Assembly: GCA_900544625.1 (NCBI GenBank)
Contig: UQVR01000001.1
Location: forward strand, 29,517-93,516
Reading direction: 5' to 3'
Origin: an uncultured Mycoplasmatota bacterium
GTDB lineage: Bacteria > Bacillota_I > Bacilli_A > RF39 > UBA660
DNA: 64,000 nt
In this document: in pieces, positions 44,594 through 56,112 of the stretch
Numbering within the stretch: the first letter of the stretch is position 1
How the letters are laid out: every line of letters begins with the position of its first letter
Made by a program: the position numbers and the translations under genes
The notes under the pieces: model-generated
Seen by the model: the letters and a program-made list of their open reading frames with translations, nothing else
Databases searched by the model: none
What the model was told of the DNA's origin: nothing

Positions 44594-47497
44594 TCAATTT
44601 TGTTTTTTTCTAATTAGTTTTTGGTTTTTATTAGCATCAAGTTCAAGAGTTTTGCATTCCTCAGGCTCATAGTTAAAATTATGATTATATAGCTTAGATT
44701 TAGCAGATTTATATATAAGAGATAAATCATCAAGATAGGCATTAAAAGTAAAATTATTTTTTGATGGAGTAGATATGTTTCCATTTTTTATAATAATTTC
44801 CATCAATTGAAGATAAGAAATACAATCTTCTTGATTTTTTGTTTTTACCTTATCCATTATTTCTTTAGGTATTTTTACTTTATGTTTTTTAAACACATCC
44901 AATATAGTATCATGATAATTAGGGTCTTCAATTGACAATTTTAGATTTAATAAAAATGGATTTCTTAACAAGTATTCAAAATAACTATAGTCTCCATGAT
45001 ATTTTTCAATTATATCTTCTATTTTTTTTGATAATTCTTTATCTTTATAAATATAAATTGCAAAATTTTTCAAATAATCAATTAATAAATCTTTAAATAA
45101 TTCCGCTTCATCTTTTGGCGTGTCATCATCAATAAGTGGTTCATTTGACTCAGAAAGAGTACTAATTAACAATTTAAATTTTATTTTTAAAAATGATTTA
45201 ACATAATCCGCAAATTTATGTTTTTCACCCATATCAATTGGTAATGCTTCACTAAGATAAGTGTATTTTAAAATTTTATTTTTTAATATTTTTAATAATT
45301 CATCTCGTTTACTGTAATCATTATTTTTAATAAACTCAAGAAACCAAATATACATCCCATCATTAAAACTTGTTAATTCTTCATAATGTGATTGCACATA
45401 ATTATATAATTCATTTTCTAACTTTTTTAAATTATCAAAATTTGCTTCTTCTTTAGGAATTTCAAACTCAAATGCTTGAACTACTTTATATAGTTTTTCG
45501 TACATTTCTTTTACTTTATTTTGAAAATCATTATATATTGTTTCACGTTCAAATTTACGACCAAATACAAGTTTTCTAATATTAAGACTAAAAGTTGTAA
45601 TAGATGATTTTCCTTTGAATTCTATAGTTTTAATTAGTGGTAATTCATTGGGTGTTAATAATCTTTGGGCATGCATTATATTTTTCAAAAAATTTTTAAA
45701 TCTTATTTCGCTTACTAATAATTTTGAATTTGTATAATCTCTAAATCTTATAGTTTCTGGCCTTATAGTTATCTCACAGTGTTCAAGAGTAGAAGGTAAC
45801 TCTAATACTTTTGGTGGTGTTGCATAGGTAGGTGTTTCTAAAATAAATAAATCTTCAAGCCCTTCATTTAGTTCAAATTCGTAATATTTTAAAAATTCTC
45901 TATCATAGTTATCTACTCTAATAGTTAGTTTTTTTAATGATTTAGGAAATACTAACTTTCTTCCTTGCGCCATTTCTTTGTTATAAATTTTTATTAATTC
46001 TGGATAAAATAAAATTTTTTGATCGGTAATTGTAATTTTTGAAACATTTTCAAAAACGTGAGATGGGGATTTGGGCTTTATTACAGAATATAATAAGCAA
46101 TCATATATCTTATATAAATCATAAAGTTCTTTATCTTCTAAAATCTTTTCTTTATGATGAGGATTTTTTAAAAACACTCCGGTTAATCGCATTATTGTTT
46201 CAAGTGGAATATATTCTTCAAACTCAAACATATTTCTTCTTAAAGATGTAACAGCAAGATATGTACAATCACTTACTTGAAAGTTTTTAAAGAAACTTTG
46301 TATTTTATAAGGATTATTAATAGAAAATAATAACATTGTTAGTTCGGGAGAACATAATATTCTACCATAATCAAAAACACCATATTTATTTTTTACAGCA
46401 TCATTTATTAAGTTAGCTAGGGTTCTATAGTCTCTTTTTGAAAAATCAAATCTTTTATATTCTTCAAAAACACAATTACTTTGCATAAATGTACTTACTT
46501 TTTTAAAGAATACCTCTTTCATTATTTCTTTTTCTTCTTTAGACATTGCACAATCATGTAAAATTTCTCTATGGTTACCATAATCTATTTCGTAAGAATT
46601 TACTTTAAATTCTACGAGTTTATAAAGAAGTTTTTTATCTTCAATTCTTTTATATTCTTTGATTGCCATATATTTTGTAATTAATCTATTTATAGAATGT
46701 ATTCTTGCTGTTCTATCTAAATGTGTAAATTCTAAAAGATTATCAAATTCTTTTTCTAAATCTTTTAATATATTTTTATTTTTAAAAAGTAATACTTCTA
46801 ATTTTATTTGCATTAATGAAAGATAATTTTTATCTTGATAATTTTCTACATATTCTTTTAATGAATCAGGTATAAATTCAGGAATATAACCAATAAGTCT
46901 TCCACGTAAATCATTATAATATTTAGGATCTTTTTCTAAATTTAAATTTTCTATTATTGATAAACATGAGTTAGTTTGTAAATTTATTAATTCAATATCT
47001 TTCTGCGCATTAAATATTTGAATTTGTAATCTAGATATTTCATTATCTATAGCATTCTTTTTGTTATTAGATAAAAATGGAATAGATTTTAGACTTGATA
47101 AAGCTGCCATTCTTAAGAAAGATTCTTCTTCGATAGCCTTTAAAATGTGAGCATAACCATTAAGTCTTGCAAGTAAATTGGTTACATATTCATTGTTATA
47201 TCCTTTGCTATTTGAATTACTTAAAATATCATGAATATGTATTTCTAAACTAGTTAAAATATCTATATAAACTCTGATATCATCAGTTTCAGTACTCTTT
47301 AAATGAGTACTTAATATTGTCTTTTTATTAGATAAAATTCTTTTATATTCTTGATAATATTGTTCACAAAGTTCTTTATTTTTAACGTTGTCAAAAAAGC
47401 TATTCGGAGGCATGATAATACTATCTTGTAAGTTAACAAGACATAAAACCTCTTGGTTTAATTTAGATTTTTTGAAAAACTTAGAAAATAAACTCAT
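44594..47497 (-). CDS. Large hypothetical cytoplasmic protein (967 aa), ORF A of the novel cluster
   Basis: Strong ribosome-binding site AGGAGGGGG before the ATG (minus strand). Has its own TTGACT-17-TATAAT promoter. No known motif, signal peptide or transmembrane segment was seen. Confidence 0.7.
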   Translation of the reverse strand: MSLFSKFFKKSKLNQEVLCLVNLQDSIIMPPNSFFDNVKNKELCEQYYQEYKRILSNKKTILSTHLKSTETDDIRVYIDILTSLEIHIHDILSNSNSKGYNNEYVTNLLARLNGYAHILKAIEEESFLRMAALSSLKSIPFLSNNKKNAIDNEISRLQIQIFNAQKDIELINLQTNSCLSIIENLNLEKDPKYYNDLRGRLIGYIPEFIPDSLKEYVENYQDKNYLSLMQIKLEVLLFKNKNILKDLEKEFDNLLEFTHLDRTARIHSINRLITKYMAIKEYKRIEDKKLLYKLVEFKVNSYEIDYGNHREILHDCAMSKEEKEIMKEVFFKKVSTFMQSNCVFEEYKRFDFSKRDYRTLANLINDAVKNKYGVFDYGRILCSPELTMLLFSINNPYKIQSFFKNFQVSDCTYLAVTSLRRNMFEFEEYIPLETIMRLTGVFLKNPHHKEKILEDKELYDLYKIYDCLLYSVIKPKSPSHVFENVSKITITDQKILFYPELIKIYNKEMAQGRKLVFPKSLKKLTIRVDNYDREFLKYYEFELNEGLEDLFILETPTYATPPKVLELPSTLEHCEITIRPETIRFRDYTNSKLLVSEIRFKNFLKNIMHAQRLLTPNELPLIKTIEFKGKSSITTFSLNIRKLVFGRKFERETIYNDFQNKVKEMYEKLYKVVQAFEFEIPKEEANFDNLKKLENELYNYVQSHYEELTSFNDGMYIWFLEFIKNNDYSKRDELLKILKNKILKYTYLSEALPIDMGEKHKFADYVKSFLKIKFKLLISTLSESNEPLIDDDTPKDEAELFKDLLIDYLKNFAIYIYKDKELSKKIEDIIEKYHGDYSYFEYLLRNPFLLNLKLSIEDPNYHDTILDVFKKHKVKIPKEIMDKVKTKNQEDCISYLQLMEIIIKNGNISTPSKNNFTFNAYLDDLSLIYKSAKSKLYNHNFNYEPEECKTLELDANKNQKLIRKKQN

Positions 47498-47523
47498 GAG
47501 TACCCCCTCCTAAAGTAGTTTTT

Positions 47524-47588
47524 ATTATAAGATAATTAATAATTGAAGTCAATATTTTCTTGCAAAATCAGGCATTTTGTGGTAAGAT
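47524..47588. promoter_or_regulatory. Back-to-back divergent promoters
   Basis: Minus strand: TTGACT(47552-47547)-17-TATAAT(47529-47524) for ORF A. Plus strand: TTGCAA(47560-47565)-17-TAAGAT(47583-47588) for ORF B. Confidence 0.6.
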
Positions 47589-47617
47589 AGAAAAACACTT
47601 GTTTAAGGGGGATATAT

Positions 47618-49057
47618 ATGTTTATTAAATTTAAAAAATATATGAAAAATGTTAAAAGTAATATGATTAGTGATTTGCAAGGTTATAAAAATATTGTAAA
47701 TATGTTAGAACTTTGGCCATTAGATTTTCAAAAGTATGTTGAAATGCTAAAAGACACTAAATCAGATGAAGTAATAGACATGCTAAATGAAGTTCTTGGA
47801 GATTTAACAAAATATGATATTAAAAGTGCTAAAGAAAGACTAAAAAAACATATTGGAATGTTAAATACACAAATTTATATATGTGATAGCCAAATTAGGG
47901 CTTTTGATAACGAAAAAGCTATCGGCGCAATTGAAGACTTTCCACTATTTTATGTAACACTAATATCAATAATTTGTAAAAATTGCCTAACAAACAAAGA
48001 AGCTATTAAAATTTTTGGAAGTGCCATTTCCTTTAAAGGTAAGAAAACTGGTGAAAATAAAACTCCCGAAGATTTATGGAAATGTGATTTTGAAAGTTTA
48101 CGACCACTAAGTAATTATTTTGATATTTATGGTAATTTTCAAAATGGGGGAGATGCTGAATTATTTATGATTTTATTTAATCAATTAAGTAAAGCTACAA
48201 GGCTAAAAGAACTTGGTATAAATAATGATGAATTAAAATTAATAAAGTATACTTCTTTATCTAACAAATTAATGATTGAATTAAGAAGTAGTTATGAAGA
48301 ATATTTAAAAACTGCTATAAAAAGAGAAGTGAAACCTGAAATGAAAAAAGAAAAGAAGTCTGAGGTAAGAAAAGAAGCTCTTGGCCCAATTATAGTAGAA
48401 TCTGAAAAGTTAAGTTTTTTAACTAATGAAGATAAAGAAATATATCTTGGAGCATGTAACCTTATAAGCTCTCTTGTTGGCAGAAGTGATTATGACTATT
48501 ACATGGAAGCTTTATTAGATATTCAAAGCCTTGAAGAATTATATAATGATGAAGATAGAGAATATTTTGATGAAATAATAAATGATGCCATTAATAAATT
48601 AAAAATATTATTAAATATGTTTCATATAGATAAAAAGATTAGAAAACCAGAAGTTGTTTTCTTAAATGATATTAAAGGTAATTGCTATTTTAAAGAAGAC
48701 TTAGATAATGTTGATAATAGTTTAAAAAGTAAAATAGATTTATTACTTGAAAAAGTTAAAAGTGGTAATAATCATCGTACAGTTTTAGATGGAAACTTAA
48801 AAGCTGGAGAATTACTATTTATAAATGGTTCTAATCTATCAATTAGTTTTTGTAAAATAGCTTTTGATACATATCTAATTATTGGAGTTCACTCTATAAA
48901 TGAAGGTTTTAACTTAGATATAAATAGATATCATTTAAATAAAAAGTATATTGAAGAATTAAAAGAACTAATGAAAAATGCTGAAGATAGAAATAAAATG
49001 GTTTTAGATGGAAATTTAGTAATTGAAACATCAGTTCCAAGGAAGAAAGTTAAGTAA
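47618..49057 (+). CDS. Hypothetical protein (479 aa), ORF B of the cluster; internal repeat VLDGNL
   Basis: The ribosome-binding site AAGGGGGA precedes the ATG. No known motif. Confidence 0.7.
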   Translation: MFIKFKKYMKNVKSNMISDLQGYKNIVNMLELWPLDFQKYVEMLKDTKSDEVIDMLNEVLGDLTKYDIKSAKERLKKHIGMLNTQIYICDSQIRAFDNEKAIGAIEDFPLFYVTLISIICKNCLTNKEAIKIFGSAISFKGKKTGENKTPEDLWKCDFESLRPLSNYFDIYGNFQNGGDAELFMILFNQLSKATRLKELGINNDELKLIKYTSLSNKLMIELRSSYEEYLKTAIKREVKPEMKKEKKSEVRKEALGPIIVESEKLSFLTNEDKEIYLGACNLISSLVGRSDYDYYMEALLDIQSLEELYNDEDREYFDEIINDAINKLKILLNMFHIDKKIRKPEVVFLNDIKGNCYFKEDLDNVDNSLKSKIDLLLEKVKSGNNHRTVLDGNLKAGELLFINGSNLSISFCKIAFDTYLIIGVHSINEGFNLDINRYHLNKKYIEELKELMKNAEDRNKMVLDGNLVIETSVPRKKVK

Positions 49058-49069
49058 AGGAGAAAAGTT

Positions 49070-50380
49070 ATGAGTGATAATGAAAGATTTACGTTATATA
49101 AATATTACGAATGTTTAGTAAACAAACTAATTAAAATAAGGGGTAGTAGAAAATATTTAAGTGATTCCCTAGAAGAAAAATATGCTACATCTATTAATAG
49201 ATTAATTGATAGTTTTGATTTTTTTGAAGATCCAAAAAAATTAGAGGAAGAATATAGCATTTTAATAAATAATTTAAAAATAAAGTTCAAAGAATATGCT
49301 AATGAAATATTTGCAAGTCATAAAATAACGGCACATATTGATTTAAATTTTGATTGTAATTTTGATACATTTGTTGATCAAGTGCATGAAATAATAAAAG
49401 TTTATGTTAGAAATAGACGTTTAGTATTTAAAACAGAAAAAAGAATCCAAGAATTAACTGAAGGAAAAGAAAAGAACTTAGTAATAATTAATTTTATTGA
49501 TGAAATAAAACGTAAATTAATTGAAATTGATAGTTCTATAGATTTTAATAAAAATATAGATGAAATAAGAAGAATGTTAAAAGAATTATCTACTATGATG
49601 AATAAACATCAAGTATATTGTGAAACAGTTTTAAAAATAGAAAATATAATCGGAGATTGTGCACCAGATTCATTAATAATTTTTCTAAACAATATTAATC
49701 TAGCTCTTTGGGAAGGACGTTATGCATATTTAGATTCATTAGTTTTTGGTATGAATTTATCTTTAGAAAAATTTCAATCAAGAAAAAGTGACGTTTTTTC
49801 TAGTTTAGCTTTAATTAAAGAAAATTATAATACTAGAATAAATTCATTAGGTAAAAATGATTTAAGTAAAATAGATGTTGCCAATAAAATGCTTGCAATG
49901 ATAAAAGAAATATTAAAAAGAGTATTAAAAGATCAGGAAAGTAGAGATATTTTAAGAACTCTTACAAGTATTAAGTTTGAAAATGTCGAAGAAATATATG
50001 ATATAGTTCAATCTAAAACGAAAAATGTTTTTGTTAAAATAAACGAAAAATATGATGGTGAAAATATCTTACTTAAAACAGATTATGCTAATAGTAAACT
50101 TTATTGTACAGGTTTTACATCATTTGGAGAAGAAACATTTGAATTTCATAGATCAACATTTATTAGAAATTATATTAGTTTATATGATTTGTTAACTTCA
50201 GGAAAAATTGATAAAAAATATTTATTAGAATTTGCTAGTATGATTGGAATGCCTTTAGATGAAGATTTGCAAAATTCTAGTGAAATAAGTATAATTAATA
50301 AAGCTGTAGATTATCTTGATGCTAAAAGAGCAATTAATAAAAGCAATCAAAATGTTGTTTTAAAAAGAGAAAAAATTTAA
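49070..50380 (+). CDS. Hypothetical protein (436 aa), ORF C; its C-terminal domain is distantly related to that of ORFs D and E (LKT..., F..Y.S..DLL, ...LKREK tail)
   Basis: The ribosome-binding site AAAGGAG precedes the ATG. It follows the stop of ORF B after a 12 nt gap. Confidence 0.7.
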   Translation: MSDNERFTLYKYYECLVNKLIKIRGSRKYLSDSLEEKYATSINRLIDSFDFFEDPKKLEEEYSILINNLKIKFKEYANEIFASHKITAHIDLNFDCNFDTFVDQVHEIIKVYVRNRRLVFKTEKRIQELTEGKEKNLVIINFIDEIKRKLIEIDSSIDFNKNIDEIRRMLKELSTMMNKHQVYCETVLKIENIIGDCAPDSLIIFLNNINLALWEGRYAYLDSLVFGMNLSLEKFQSRKSDVFSSLALIKENYNTRINSLGKNDLSKIDVANKMLAMIKEILKRVLKDQESRDILRTLTSIKFENVEEIYDIVQSKTKNVFVKINEKYDGENILLKTDYANSKLYCTGFTSFGEETFEFHRSTFIRNYISLYDLLTSGKIDKKYLLEFASMIGMPLDEDLQNSSEISIINKAVDYLDAKRAINKSNQNVVLKREKI

Positions 50381-50392
50381 ATGGAGTAAATC

Positions 50393-51817
50393 ATGGATTA
50401 TAGTGAAGCATTAAAGTTATTTGGATTTACAGGTAATTTTACAAAAGAAGAATTAAAGAAAAGATACTTGGAATTATCTAAAAAATATCATCCAGATTTA
50501 AATGGGGATGAAGAGATGATGAAGAAGATTAATTCCGCATATGAAGTATTAAAAAGTCATAGTGTGTCAAGTGATTTAGTAAAATACTATGATAGTTTAA
50601 AAGAAAGATTGAAATTTTTTGCAAGTAAAACTGTTTATTTGCCTGATACTTTAGAATTTAAATATGCAAAAGAAATTGATGAAGTTATTGAAAAATTTAA
50701 TTTTAATATGTCTAAATCTGCGTTAGATTTATTTTATAATGTTATTTTAGATCATATAAAAGATATATTTGCAAAGTACAAAAAAGAAGTATTAAAAAAT
50801 GTACCCGTATTTTTTGTGAGTAAATTTGAACCAATTAATGATGATTGTTCTTTTGATGATTATGTAAAGAAAGTAAATGAAATTAGAAATAAATATGAAA
50901 AAATTGATAAAGGCTTAAATCAAATTATATTATCTATGTTTAAAGATAAAAATGTTAATAGTAAAATATTAGAAGAGATTTTTGATGTAAAAGAAATAAT
51001 AATTAAAGAAATTATTGATAAAAAAATTACATTAGATGATGGTATATATAAATTACAAGCTGAAATAAAGACAAGAATTTTAAAAATAGAAGCATTAAAT
51101 AATAAAATTTGGAATACTTATAAAGCAATAATGAATAACTTTAATAGAAGAATGAAGGAATTAAATCCTACGGATATAGAAGATATTGATGTTGCTATGA
51201 AAGCGTTTAATAAAGCTATGGCTACATTAAAATCTGTTCAATTAGGTACTGAAGATGAAAAAGTTTTAGGCACTCTTGAAAATTTAACATTTACAAATAG
51301 TGATGAACTTAAAGAAAATGAATATGAATTATATATTACCGCAAATTTTTCTGATGGTGAGGAACCTGAGATTGTTTTGAAAACTGGTGAAAATGGAAAT
51401 CTTGTATCCTTTTTAAAGAAAATTGCTGATATGACAGAAGAAGTTTTTGTGGCTAAAGAAGTGTTTTATAAAAAATATAGTAGTTTTAAAGATGTTTTAA
51501 AGAATTTGGATTTTTTAGGTGATAAAGGTTATGTTCAATATTTAAATACAAAATCTATGGCTACAGCATTATATTATTATGAAAATGCGGGTTGTTATAT
51601 TGTTTTGACAAAAAATAATGAAATAATAATAGTTAGATATAATAAATTTGATTCATTAAGTCCTTTTGTAACGGATATTGCTAGTAGAACGTATAAAGAT
51701 AAGCAAGTACTATACGATAAAATCTATAATAGTTTCTTAAAAAGCAAAAAAGAAATAAAGTTTAAAAATAATGAAAATAATATATTAAAAAGAGAGAAAA
51801 ATAAAGAAAATATCTAG
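50393..51817 (+). CDS. J-domain (DnaJ-like, HPD motif) protein with a roughly 400 aa C-terminal domain of unknown function, ORF D
   Basis: N-terminus LFGFTGNFTKEELKKRYLELSKKYHPDLNGDEEMMKKINSAYEVLK is a canonical J-domain helix II-HPD-helix III. The ribosome-binding site GGAG lies 6 nt upstream. Confidence 0.8.
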   Translation: MDYSEALKLFGFTGNFTKEELKKRYLELSKKYHPDLNGDEEMMKKINSAYEVLKSHSVSSDLVKYYDSLKERLKFFASKTVYLPDTLEFKYAKEIDEVIEKFNFNMSKSALDLFYNVILDHIKDIFAKYKKEVLKNVPVFFVSKFEPINDDCSFDDYVKKVNEIRNKYEKIDKGLNQIILSMFKDKNVNSKILEEIFDVKEIIIKEIIDKKITLDDGIYKLQAEIKTRILKIEALNNKIWNTYKAIMNNFNRRMKELNPTDIEDIDVAMKAFNKAMATLKSVQLGTEDEKVLGTLENLTFTNSDELKENEYELYITANFSDGEEPEIVLKTGENGNLVSFLKKIADMTEEVFVAKEVFYKKYSSFKDVLKNLDFLGDKGYVQYLNTKSMATALYYYENAGCYIVLTKNNEIIIVRYNKFDSLSPFVTDIASRTYKDKQVLYDKIYNSFLKSKKEIKFKNNENNILKREKNKENI

Positions 51818-51844
51818 ACAAAAAACAAAGAAAGAAGAGAGAAA

Positions 51845-52537
51845 ATGAAGGAAAATATGTACAGAGACATTTATAAAATGTTGGTAGATAAATTAAAAAA
51901 TAGATTGATGGAATTGCAATCAACCGATTTAGAAGAAATTAATAATGCTTTGCAAACATTTAATAAAGCTATGGTTATATTAAAAGCTGTTCAATTTGGT
52001 GCTGAAGATGAAAAAGTTTTAGGTACCCTTGGAAATTTAAAATTTATAGGTAAAGACGAAATACATGAAGATTATAAATATGAATTATATATATCAGCTA
52101 AAGTTTCTGAAGATGAGGTTCCAGAAATTGTTTTAAAAACTGGCAGAGTTGGTAATTTTGTATCTTATTTAAAGAAAAGCGATAATGGTACGGAACCAAC
52201 AGAGACATTTTATATGTCTAGTGATAAATTTTATGAAAAATATCGTATGTTTACAGAATATTTAAAACAAGCTTATTTTCAAGGAAAACGTTGTTTCGTA
52301 AAAGAAACATCAAGTGATGCAACATTGTTATATTTTTTTGAAGATATAAGTATTGTTTCGATTTTAAAGAATGCAAATGTAATTGTTGCAAAATATAGCG
52401 ATATTTCGATTGAACCCCCTAATAATTGTGATGTAGCTGCTAGAAAATATAAAGATGAACGAATACTTTATTATAAAATCTATAATAGTTTCTTTGAAAG
52501 AGAAGAAGAAATAAAGTTAAAACGCGAAAAAAAATAA
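51845..52537 (+). CDS. Truncated paralogue of the ORF D C-terminal domain with an N-terminal 10 codon leader identical to aspS (chimeric ORF E)
   Basis: Residues 1-10 (MKENMYRDIY) match the aspS start, and 28 of the first 30 nucleotides are identical. The remainder is about 65% identical to ORF D residues about 270-340 and about 35-40% identical thereafter. Confidence 0.55.
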   Translation: MKENMYRDIYKMLVDKLKNRLMELQSTDLEEINNALQTFNKAMVILKAVQFGAEDEKVLGTLGNLKFIGKDEIHEDYKYELYISAKVSEDEVPEIVLKTGRVGNFVSYLKKSDNGTEPTETFYMSSDKFYEKYRMFTEYLKQAYFQGKRCFVKETSSDATLLYFFEDISIVSILKNANVIVAKYSDISIEPPNNCDVAARKYKDERILYYKIYNSFFEREEEIKLKREKK

Positions 52538-52547
52538 ATAAAATATC

Positions 52548-52576
52548 TAGACAAATGATTAAAAAAGTAGTATATT
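52548..52576 (+). promoter_or_regulatory. Promoter of the aspS leader (TAGACA-17-TATATT)
   Basis: Sequence tagacaaatgattaaaaaagtagtatatt. Confidence 0.45.
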
Positions 52577-55404: not shown

Positions 55405-56112
55405 ATGATATTATGTGGAAAGAAAGCAAGATTGTATAATTGTTTAATAGAAATTTTAAATCAACATATGGATAATTATAATTATGAATTTATCATCGGA
55501 AAGAAAGATGGTAATAAATATTATACTAATAATTTGGAAAATATTGAAATTCATAAAAAAAATTCTGATGATTTAGTTAGTGATGTAGAAGTAATAAGTT
55601 TAGGATATAATTTATTTAAAAGATTTGGATTAGATGATATAGAATTAAGTATTAGTTGTAATGAGGAAGTATTAAACTTACTTGAAGCATTAGAAATATA
55701 TTGTATAAATGATATTGAAAGTAATGAATTAAATTGGAATTATATTTATGAAGATGTAATAGTAGGTGTTGGATGCAAAAATAATAATGAAATTAATATT
55801 AAAATAAATATTGAAACATTGATAAATGAAGTAATGAATATTATTAGAGATAATGCTTTGGATATGAACATTGATGTATGTATTATTGGAGTAAGTGAAG
55901 AAGAAAGTTATCATGCTTTAAAAATAGCACAAGAATTAAGAATGAATAATATTAATGTTGTATTGAATGAAAAAGTAAATAGTAAATTTAATATAAATTT
56001 AGATGATGAAACTTTAAGTAAAGGTATTGTTAGTATAAAAGATAATTATACTAATGAAGAAATTAAATTAGATGAAGCAGATATATTAGAATATGTTTTA
56101 GGAAATATATAG
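55405..56112 (+). CDS. HisRS-like fragment: histidyl-tRNA-synthetase-derived protein retaining the post-motif-2 linker and the anticodon-binding domain but lacking class II motifs 1-3
   Basis: FGLDDIELSISCNEEVL resembles the HisRS LGL..V.L.INSLG segment. The C-terminus IDVCIIGVSEEESYHALKIAQELRMNNINVV...LSKGIVSIKDNYTNEEIKLDEADILEYV resembles the HisRS anticodon-binding domain with a roughly 20 aa deletion. Confidence 0.5.
   Translation: MILCGKKARLYNCLIEILNQHMDNYNYEFIIGKKDGNKYYTNNLENIEIHKKNSDDLVSDVEVISLGYNLFKRFGLDDIELSISCNEEVLNLLEALEIYCINDIESNELNWNYIYEDVIVGVGCKNNNEINIKINIETLINEVMNIIRDNALDMNIDVCIIGVSEEESYHALKIAQELRMNNINVVLNEKVNSKFNINLDDETLSKGIVSIKDNYTNEEIKLDEADILEYVLGNI

Follow-up and report, generated by a model that had tools for sequence, protein, structure and literature searches.

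The site at which an Hsp70 works is set by J-domain proteins. Those of class C (type III), such as DjlA, DjlB, DjlC, and HscB of Escherichia coli, have an N-terminal J-domain with an HPD tripeptide followed by an unrelated, family-specific domain, and we know of no client for most of the bacterial members. TopJ of Mycoplasma pneumoniae and MG200 of Mycoplasma genitalium, reportedly terminal-organelle proteins, are lineage-specific cytoplasmic J-proteins from a genome-reduced relative of the Bacilli and are thought to direct DnaK to private, largely helical proteins. In mitochondria, the active J-protein Tim14 (Pam18) is regulated by an inactive paralogous partner, Tim16 (Pam16), which retains a degenerate J-like fold. 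Chaperones also enter toxin control in toxin-antitoxin-chaperone (TAC) systems, which join HigB/HigA or a similar toxin-antitoxin pair to a SecB-like chaperone (PMC5105189, PMC6377645, bioRxiv 10.1101/2024.02.24.581848).

The locus described here lies within a 64-kb stretch of DNA, analyzed as a whole and called the window below, from uncultured human-gut Bacilli related to 'Firmicutes bacterium CAG:460'. It is a real, unannotated, tightly packed cluster around a bona fide J-domain protein (ORF D) with paralogues. We give a probability of roughly 45% to the reading that this is a fast-evolving chromosomal locus whose lineage-specific J-domain adaptors bring the housekeeping DnaK to partners encoded in the locus itself and may control a toxin-like effector. 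Like the E. coli class C proteins, D has an N-terminal HPD J-domain and then a family-specific domain, which is expected to confer client or site specificity. Unlike DjlA, DjlB, and DjlC, it is not membrane-anchored, and the locus differs further from the E. coli cases in its tandem arrays with J-less paralogues, in having no adjacent HscC or HscA Hsp70 and no Fe-S context, and in that the non-J part of D has no relatives beyond a few lineages of gut Bacilli. D resembles TopJ and MG200 as a lineage-specific cytoplasmic J-domain protein. The likeness to Tim14 and Tim16 is one of concept, an active J-protein beside an inactive paralogue; these proteins are unrelated in sequence to D, and the partners here (ORFs C and E) have no J-domain and share other domains with D instead.

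Gene layout and control signals

An earlier note, made from the sequence alone, had described five ORFs, and ORF calling matched all of their coordinates and lengths. The features of the locus are as follows.

44594–47497, minus strand: ORF A, 967 aa, divergently transcribed
47498–47617, no strand: A/B divergent control region, 120 nt
47618–49057, plus strand: ORF B, 479 aa, leading the plus-strand operon
48650–48982, plus strand: predicted RelE/ParE-superfamily toxin-like fold, B residues ~345–455
49070–50380, plus strand: ORF C, 436 aa, D paralogue without a J-domain
50393–51817, plus strand: ORF D, 474 aa, J-domain protein
50393–50566, plus strand: J-domain of D, residues 1–58 (HPD codons at 50489–50497)
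51807–51822, plus strand: direct repeat copy 1, AAAATATCTAGACAAA, across the D stop codon
51845–52537, plus strand: ORF E, 230 aa, copied from the C-terminal half of a D-type gene
52540–52555, plus strand: direct repeat copy 2, AAAATATCTAGACAAA, just past the E stop codon
52586–52767, plus strand: aspS T-box leader (Rfam RF00230, 100.8 bits, E = 5e-21)

The tight packing that had been noted is borne out, with gaps of 12 nt (B–C), 12 nt (C–D), and 27 nt (D–E). Good ribosome-binding sites had been described throughout; A, B, C, and D each follow a Shine-Dalgarno-like sequence, that of B being AAGGGGGA on the plus strand within the A/B spacer (a consensus match), but the site before E is weaker. 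Sigma-70-like matches face both ways in the spacer, as expected for the back-to-back promoters proposed earlier. The candidate for A is TTGACT-17-TATAAT (minus strand, 47552–47524, 11 of 12 consensus positions) and that for B is TTGCAA-17-TAAGAT (plus strand, a consensus match spotted by eye). However, such matches in this AT-rich DNA are barely above shuffled expectation (95 found, 77 expected). All five proteins lack a transmembrane segment, in keeping with the claim that they are soluble; residues 102–120 of B are borderline hydrophobic.

The cluster lies between gtrA on its left and aspS, which stands directly behind the T-box leader. The leader anchors the cluster at a fixed point on the right and belongs to its surroundings, not to the module. 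The earlier remark that hisS usually occupies this position agrees with the known Bacillus gene order; a truncated HisRS-like ORF is located downstream (55405–56112) and is the sole HisRS-like sequence reported there. The aspS–asnS interval also holds the fast-evolving ORFans F240 and H337.

The J-domain protein and its paralogues

D consists of the J-domain (residues 1–58), a helical region (59–296), a beta-rich domain (312–421), and a basic, disordered tail whose last residues are LKREK. Residues 11–55 match Pfam PF00226 (E = 3.1e-11, 43.6 bits, cut-off 27.8), the region has the J-domain fold, and the HPD tripeptide (residues 33–35) falls between helices II and III, so that the textbook J-domain recognized earlier stands. 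The best structural matches to this short, three-helix domain are Tim14 and Tim16. D does not belong to the DnaJ classes A and B: the NCBIfam DnaJ and CbpA models cover only residues ~2–70 (34 bits against a cut-off of 377), and a G/F region, zinc finger, and DnaJ C-terminal domains are absent from the protein. It is probably a specialized co-chaperone of the class C type and is predicted to stimulate Hsp70 ATPase activity. The J-domain is the best conserved region of D and the beta-rich domain the most variable, and HPD is retained in every J-bearing paralogue and orthologue, distant lineages included. This conservation speaks for a functional connection with an Hsp70.

No Hsp70 is encoded at the locus, as the earlier note had stated: its signature is absent from all six frames of the 64-kb window, and the genes called in the related loci examined include no Hsp70. 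That note had also drawn an analogy to the E. coli djlB/djlC-hscC neighborhood, which these results do not uphold. A module of this type, in which J-proteins serve a dedicated, specialized Hsp70 encoded elsewhere in the genome, would fit the presence of several J-domain paralogues and unknown partners at one locus, but the adjacent Hsp70 that defines it is missing from the locus, the window, and the related loci examined, and D has no sequence similarity to DjlB or DjlC outside the J-domain. We regard it as very unlikely.

Full proteins, sub-fragments, and family alignments were used in family searches. A, B, C, E, and the non-J part of D had no match in Pfam, NCBIfam, PADLOC, PHROG, or PDB sequences, and neither the helical nor the beta-rich region of D has a PDB relative. 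Weak matches to a YwqH-like family (E = 0.04), DUF7852, and 7sez (E = 0.02) were rejected as sub-threshold and inconsistent.

C, D, and E are paralogous, as had been proposed. D and E are 44.5% identical over D residues 237–461 (blastp, E = 1e-47), and C and D are 24% identical over ~475 columns, nearly their full length outside the J-domain (blastp, E = 9e-8). The LKT motif and LKREK tail pointed out earlier are invariant columns in the C/D/E alignment, and C and E have the helical region, beta-rich domain, and basic LKREK tail in common with D. The family has very few members: 1.84 billion representative proteins, searched exhaustively, gave 40 matches at E ≤ 1e-3. E is a chimera that joins the beginning of aspS to one half of a D-type gene: its first 30 nt (51845–51874) copy the start of aspS, with 28 of 30 nt identical over the first 10 codons. 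The AAAATATCTAGACAAA repeat is present twice only in genomes that carry E, and its second copy includes the −35 hexamer (TAGACA) of the promoter that serves the aspS leader. E is missing from L012, L007, and L036.

ORFs A and B

The N-terminal part of B is helical, and its C-terminal domain is small and of the alpha/beta type. The earlier statement that no motif could be assigned holds for family matches, but the C-terminal ~100 residues of B are predicted to adopt a RelE/ParE-superfamily toxin-like fold. The AlphaFold model has a mean pLDDT of 64.5, with 63–73 in the C-terminal domain and <50 for that domain's first strand and helix. The underlying alignment was short of relatives, which was partly remedied by adding cluster members. 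RelE, ParE, HigB, and Gp49 profiles did not match B residues 341–479 (Pfam scan, E ≤ 10), a profile search of PDB sequences with the domain was negative, and hhalign against E. coli RelE gave a probability of 0.05. The fold call is thus structural only. One copy of B occurs in each CAG-460-type locus, the orthologue in the L018 lineage is 40% identical, and >100 positions are invariant across orthologues at this level of identity. B may be toxic. No small antitoxin gene adjoins it, its neighbors encoding proteins of 967 and 436 aa; a large antitoxin, or a fused one, is conceivable.

The locus resembles TAC systems in that a protein with a RelE/ParE-superfamily fold (here predicted) and a dedicated component of a chaperone system are encoded in one operon, and in logic, since chaperone availability would control a toxin-like effector. 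It differs in that the chaperone component is a J-domain adaptor for DnaK rather than SecB, for which no ORF had a Pfam or NCBIfam match. Neither a small antitoxin nor a ChAD element was identified at the locus, the RelE/ParE-like domain is only the C-terminal quarter of the 479-aa B, and one lineage that retains the J-proteins is missing B. Compared with the toxins themselves, B has no detectable sequence similarity to RelE, HigB, YoeB, ParE, or PrpT, its domain is joined to 340 aa of helical N-terminal sequence with no cognate small antitoxin gene, and it is chromosomally fixed and conserved where RelE/ParE toxins are sporadic.

Each genome with A has one to three copies of it, all of them on the minus strand. 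In the family alignment, its first ~340 aa hardly change across the genus, and its C-terminal ~600 aa are variable and look like a sensor. Leucine-rich-repeat-like units at ~500–650 are a pattern read by eye and without statistical support. When A alone was the query, every homologue recovered was at least 92% identical, too close for a deep alignment. A possible LXG/YwqH-type relationship of A is a lead, also without statistical support.

Distribution, evolutionary rates, and proposed role of the locus

The locus is restricted to a narrow clade, CAG-460 and relatives, and in all lineages it occupies the same chromosomal site, immediately 5' of the aspS T-box leader. Each of the CAG-460-type genomes examined has A and B alongside members of the C/D/E family, which sustains the proposed co-occurrence in part; the five-gene set is not a conserved unit. 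Across three lineage groups, the constant core is one J-domain protein with one or more J-less paralogues. B occurs in two of the three groups and A in one, and C/D/E family copies number two to five. The L018 lineage has B and three J-proteins in a gene order different from that of the CAG-460 genus, with a Fic/DOC-family protein as the divergently transcribed gene in the place of A. The L050 lineage lacks both A and B but has a J-protein and J-less paralogues, so the J-proteins are not strictly dependent on either. B is split in L003, L009 has fragments of a paralogue, and the two remotest D relatives are solitary among housekeeping genes. A single syntenic, vertically inherited ancestral locus is behind all of the co-occurrence, which is therefore not independent evidence for a functional link.

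Variable gene content, the existence of phage J-domain proteins, PHROG families of unknown function that match the J-domain of D, and an IS605-type TnpB gene near the locus in the L018 lineage might suggest a prophage, plasmid, or other mobile-element remnant inserted between gtrA and aspS. However, integrase, recombinase, and structural genes are all absent, the GC content of the cluster is like that of its surroundings, and the chromosomal position is identical in all lineages. A, B, and the non-J part of D had no match in 50,697 phage records or in IMG/VR contigs, and B had none in a plasmid collection. A mobile origin is extremely improbable and was rejected on the lack of matches in these collections.

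Values of dN/dS for A–E range from 0.23 to 0.51, reaching 0.93 for C against L007, and flanking genes have values of 0.02–0.17, a 3- to 10-fold difference. By gene, the values are 0.40–0.50 (A), 0.23–0.41 (B), 0.24–0.93 (C), and 0.40 (E). All comparisons are below 1; together with ORFs that are intact in hundreds of metagenome assemblies, this indicates that the genes are real. The dS of A–C is below that of the flanks, which suggests recombination between lineages. We rejected the view that raised dN/dS proves an arms race, because all values are below 1 and relaxed constraint fits too; raised dN/dS is also expected of any weakly constrained lineage-specific gene.

These rates bear on the alternative that there is no coherent system, and that weakly constrained genes in a recombination-prone region by aspS duplicate, drift, and decay, with D general or redundant and its neighbors passengers. 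The high dN/dS (0.93 for C against L007), the pseudogene fragments and split genes (the paralogue in L009 and B in L003), the chimeric E, the solitary remote relatives of D, and F240 and H337, which are likewise fast-evolving, are in line with it. Yet dN/dS is mostly well below 1, the assemblies with intact ORFs are independent, and the 12–27 nt spacing and operon layout are conserved. The >100 invariant positions of B, the nearly invariant N-terminal 340 aa of A, and the pairing of J and J-less proteins retained in three lineage groups also speak against drift, and we consider this alternative unlikely.

It is likewise doubtful that D is a dedicated J co-chaperone through which DnaK assembles or maintains a cytoskeletal or cell-architecture complex of the mostly helical A, B, C, and E. 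TopJ and MG200 are a precedent in the terminal organelle, the proteins are cytoplasmic, largely helical, and without an enzymatic signature, and the locus is on the core chromosome, vertically inherited, and found in every strain seen. Against this role, the genes evolve fast (dN/dS 3–10 times that of the flanks) and vary in copy number, some lineages do without A and B, and B has the predicted RelE/ParE-like fold. D also has no homology to TopJ or MG200 past the J-domain, and neither an EAGR box nor acidic proline-rich regions were seen in it.

In the favored reading, the constant HPD J-domain of D would dock on the housekeeping DnaK and trigger its ATPase, and the rapidly changing C-terminal domain would pick the client or site of action. 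J-less paralogues may pair or compete with D through the same C-terminal domain, and the likeliest clients would be products of the same locus. A narrower and less probable version is a conflict-type module (defense or toxin-like) in which DnaK recruited by J-adaptors holds or releases a RelE/ParE-like effector, with logic like that of SecB TAC. Raised dN/dS, low dS in A–C, variable copy number, and gene birth and death (E, pseudogene fragments) are features of conflict loci. The joint presence of B and J-proteins in the CAG-460 genus and L018 despite differing gene order counts for the favored reading, as does the Fic/DOC protein in the place of A. The mid-confidence B model with no sequence link to RelE/ParE and no small antitoxin counts against that reading, as do the absence of a significant match for A–E to the PADLOC-DB 2.0 defense models, the core chromosomal position rather than a mobile island, the solitary remote D relatives, and the one ancestral locus behind the co-occurrence. 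More doubtful still is a chaperone-gated conflict system in which DnaK and J-adaptors inactivate or activate B, and the hypervariable A and the C-terminal domains of the J-proteins serve as sensors; the sensed signals might be phage proteins, or DnaK hijacked in infection. Such a system, not described before, would be the DnaK/J-domain equivalent of SecB-based TAC.

The practical value of the locus is limited by its narrow taxonomic range and the lack of a cultured host. It marks a stretch of high variability in a human-gut lineage that is abundant but uncultured; this may serve strain typing, and it may help the study of new-gene origin, as in E, a chimera with an aspS start. For J-protein biology, it is a compact natural case of a constant J-domain fused to a fast-evolving specificity domain, in tandem paralogues with and without the J-domain and with adjoining candidate clients. 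Should the tie to B, with its predicted RelE/ParE fold, prove real, chaperone-controlled toxins would extend from SecB TAC to the DnaK/DnaJ machine, and chaperone availability would become a candidate infection or stress signal.

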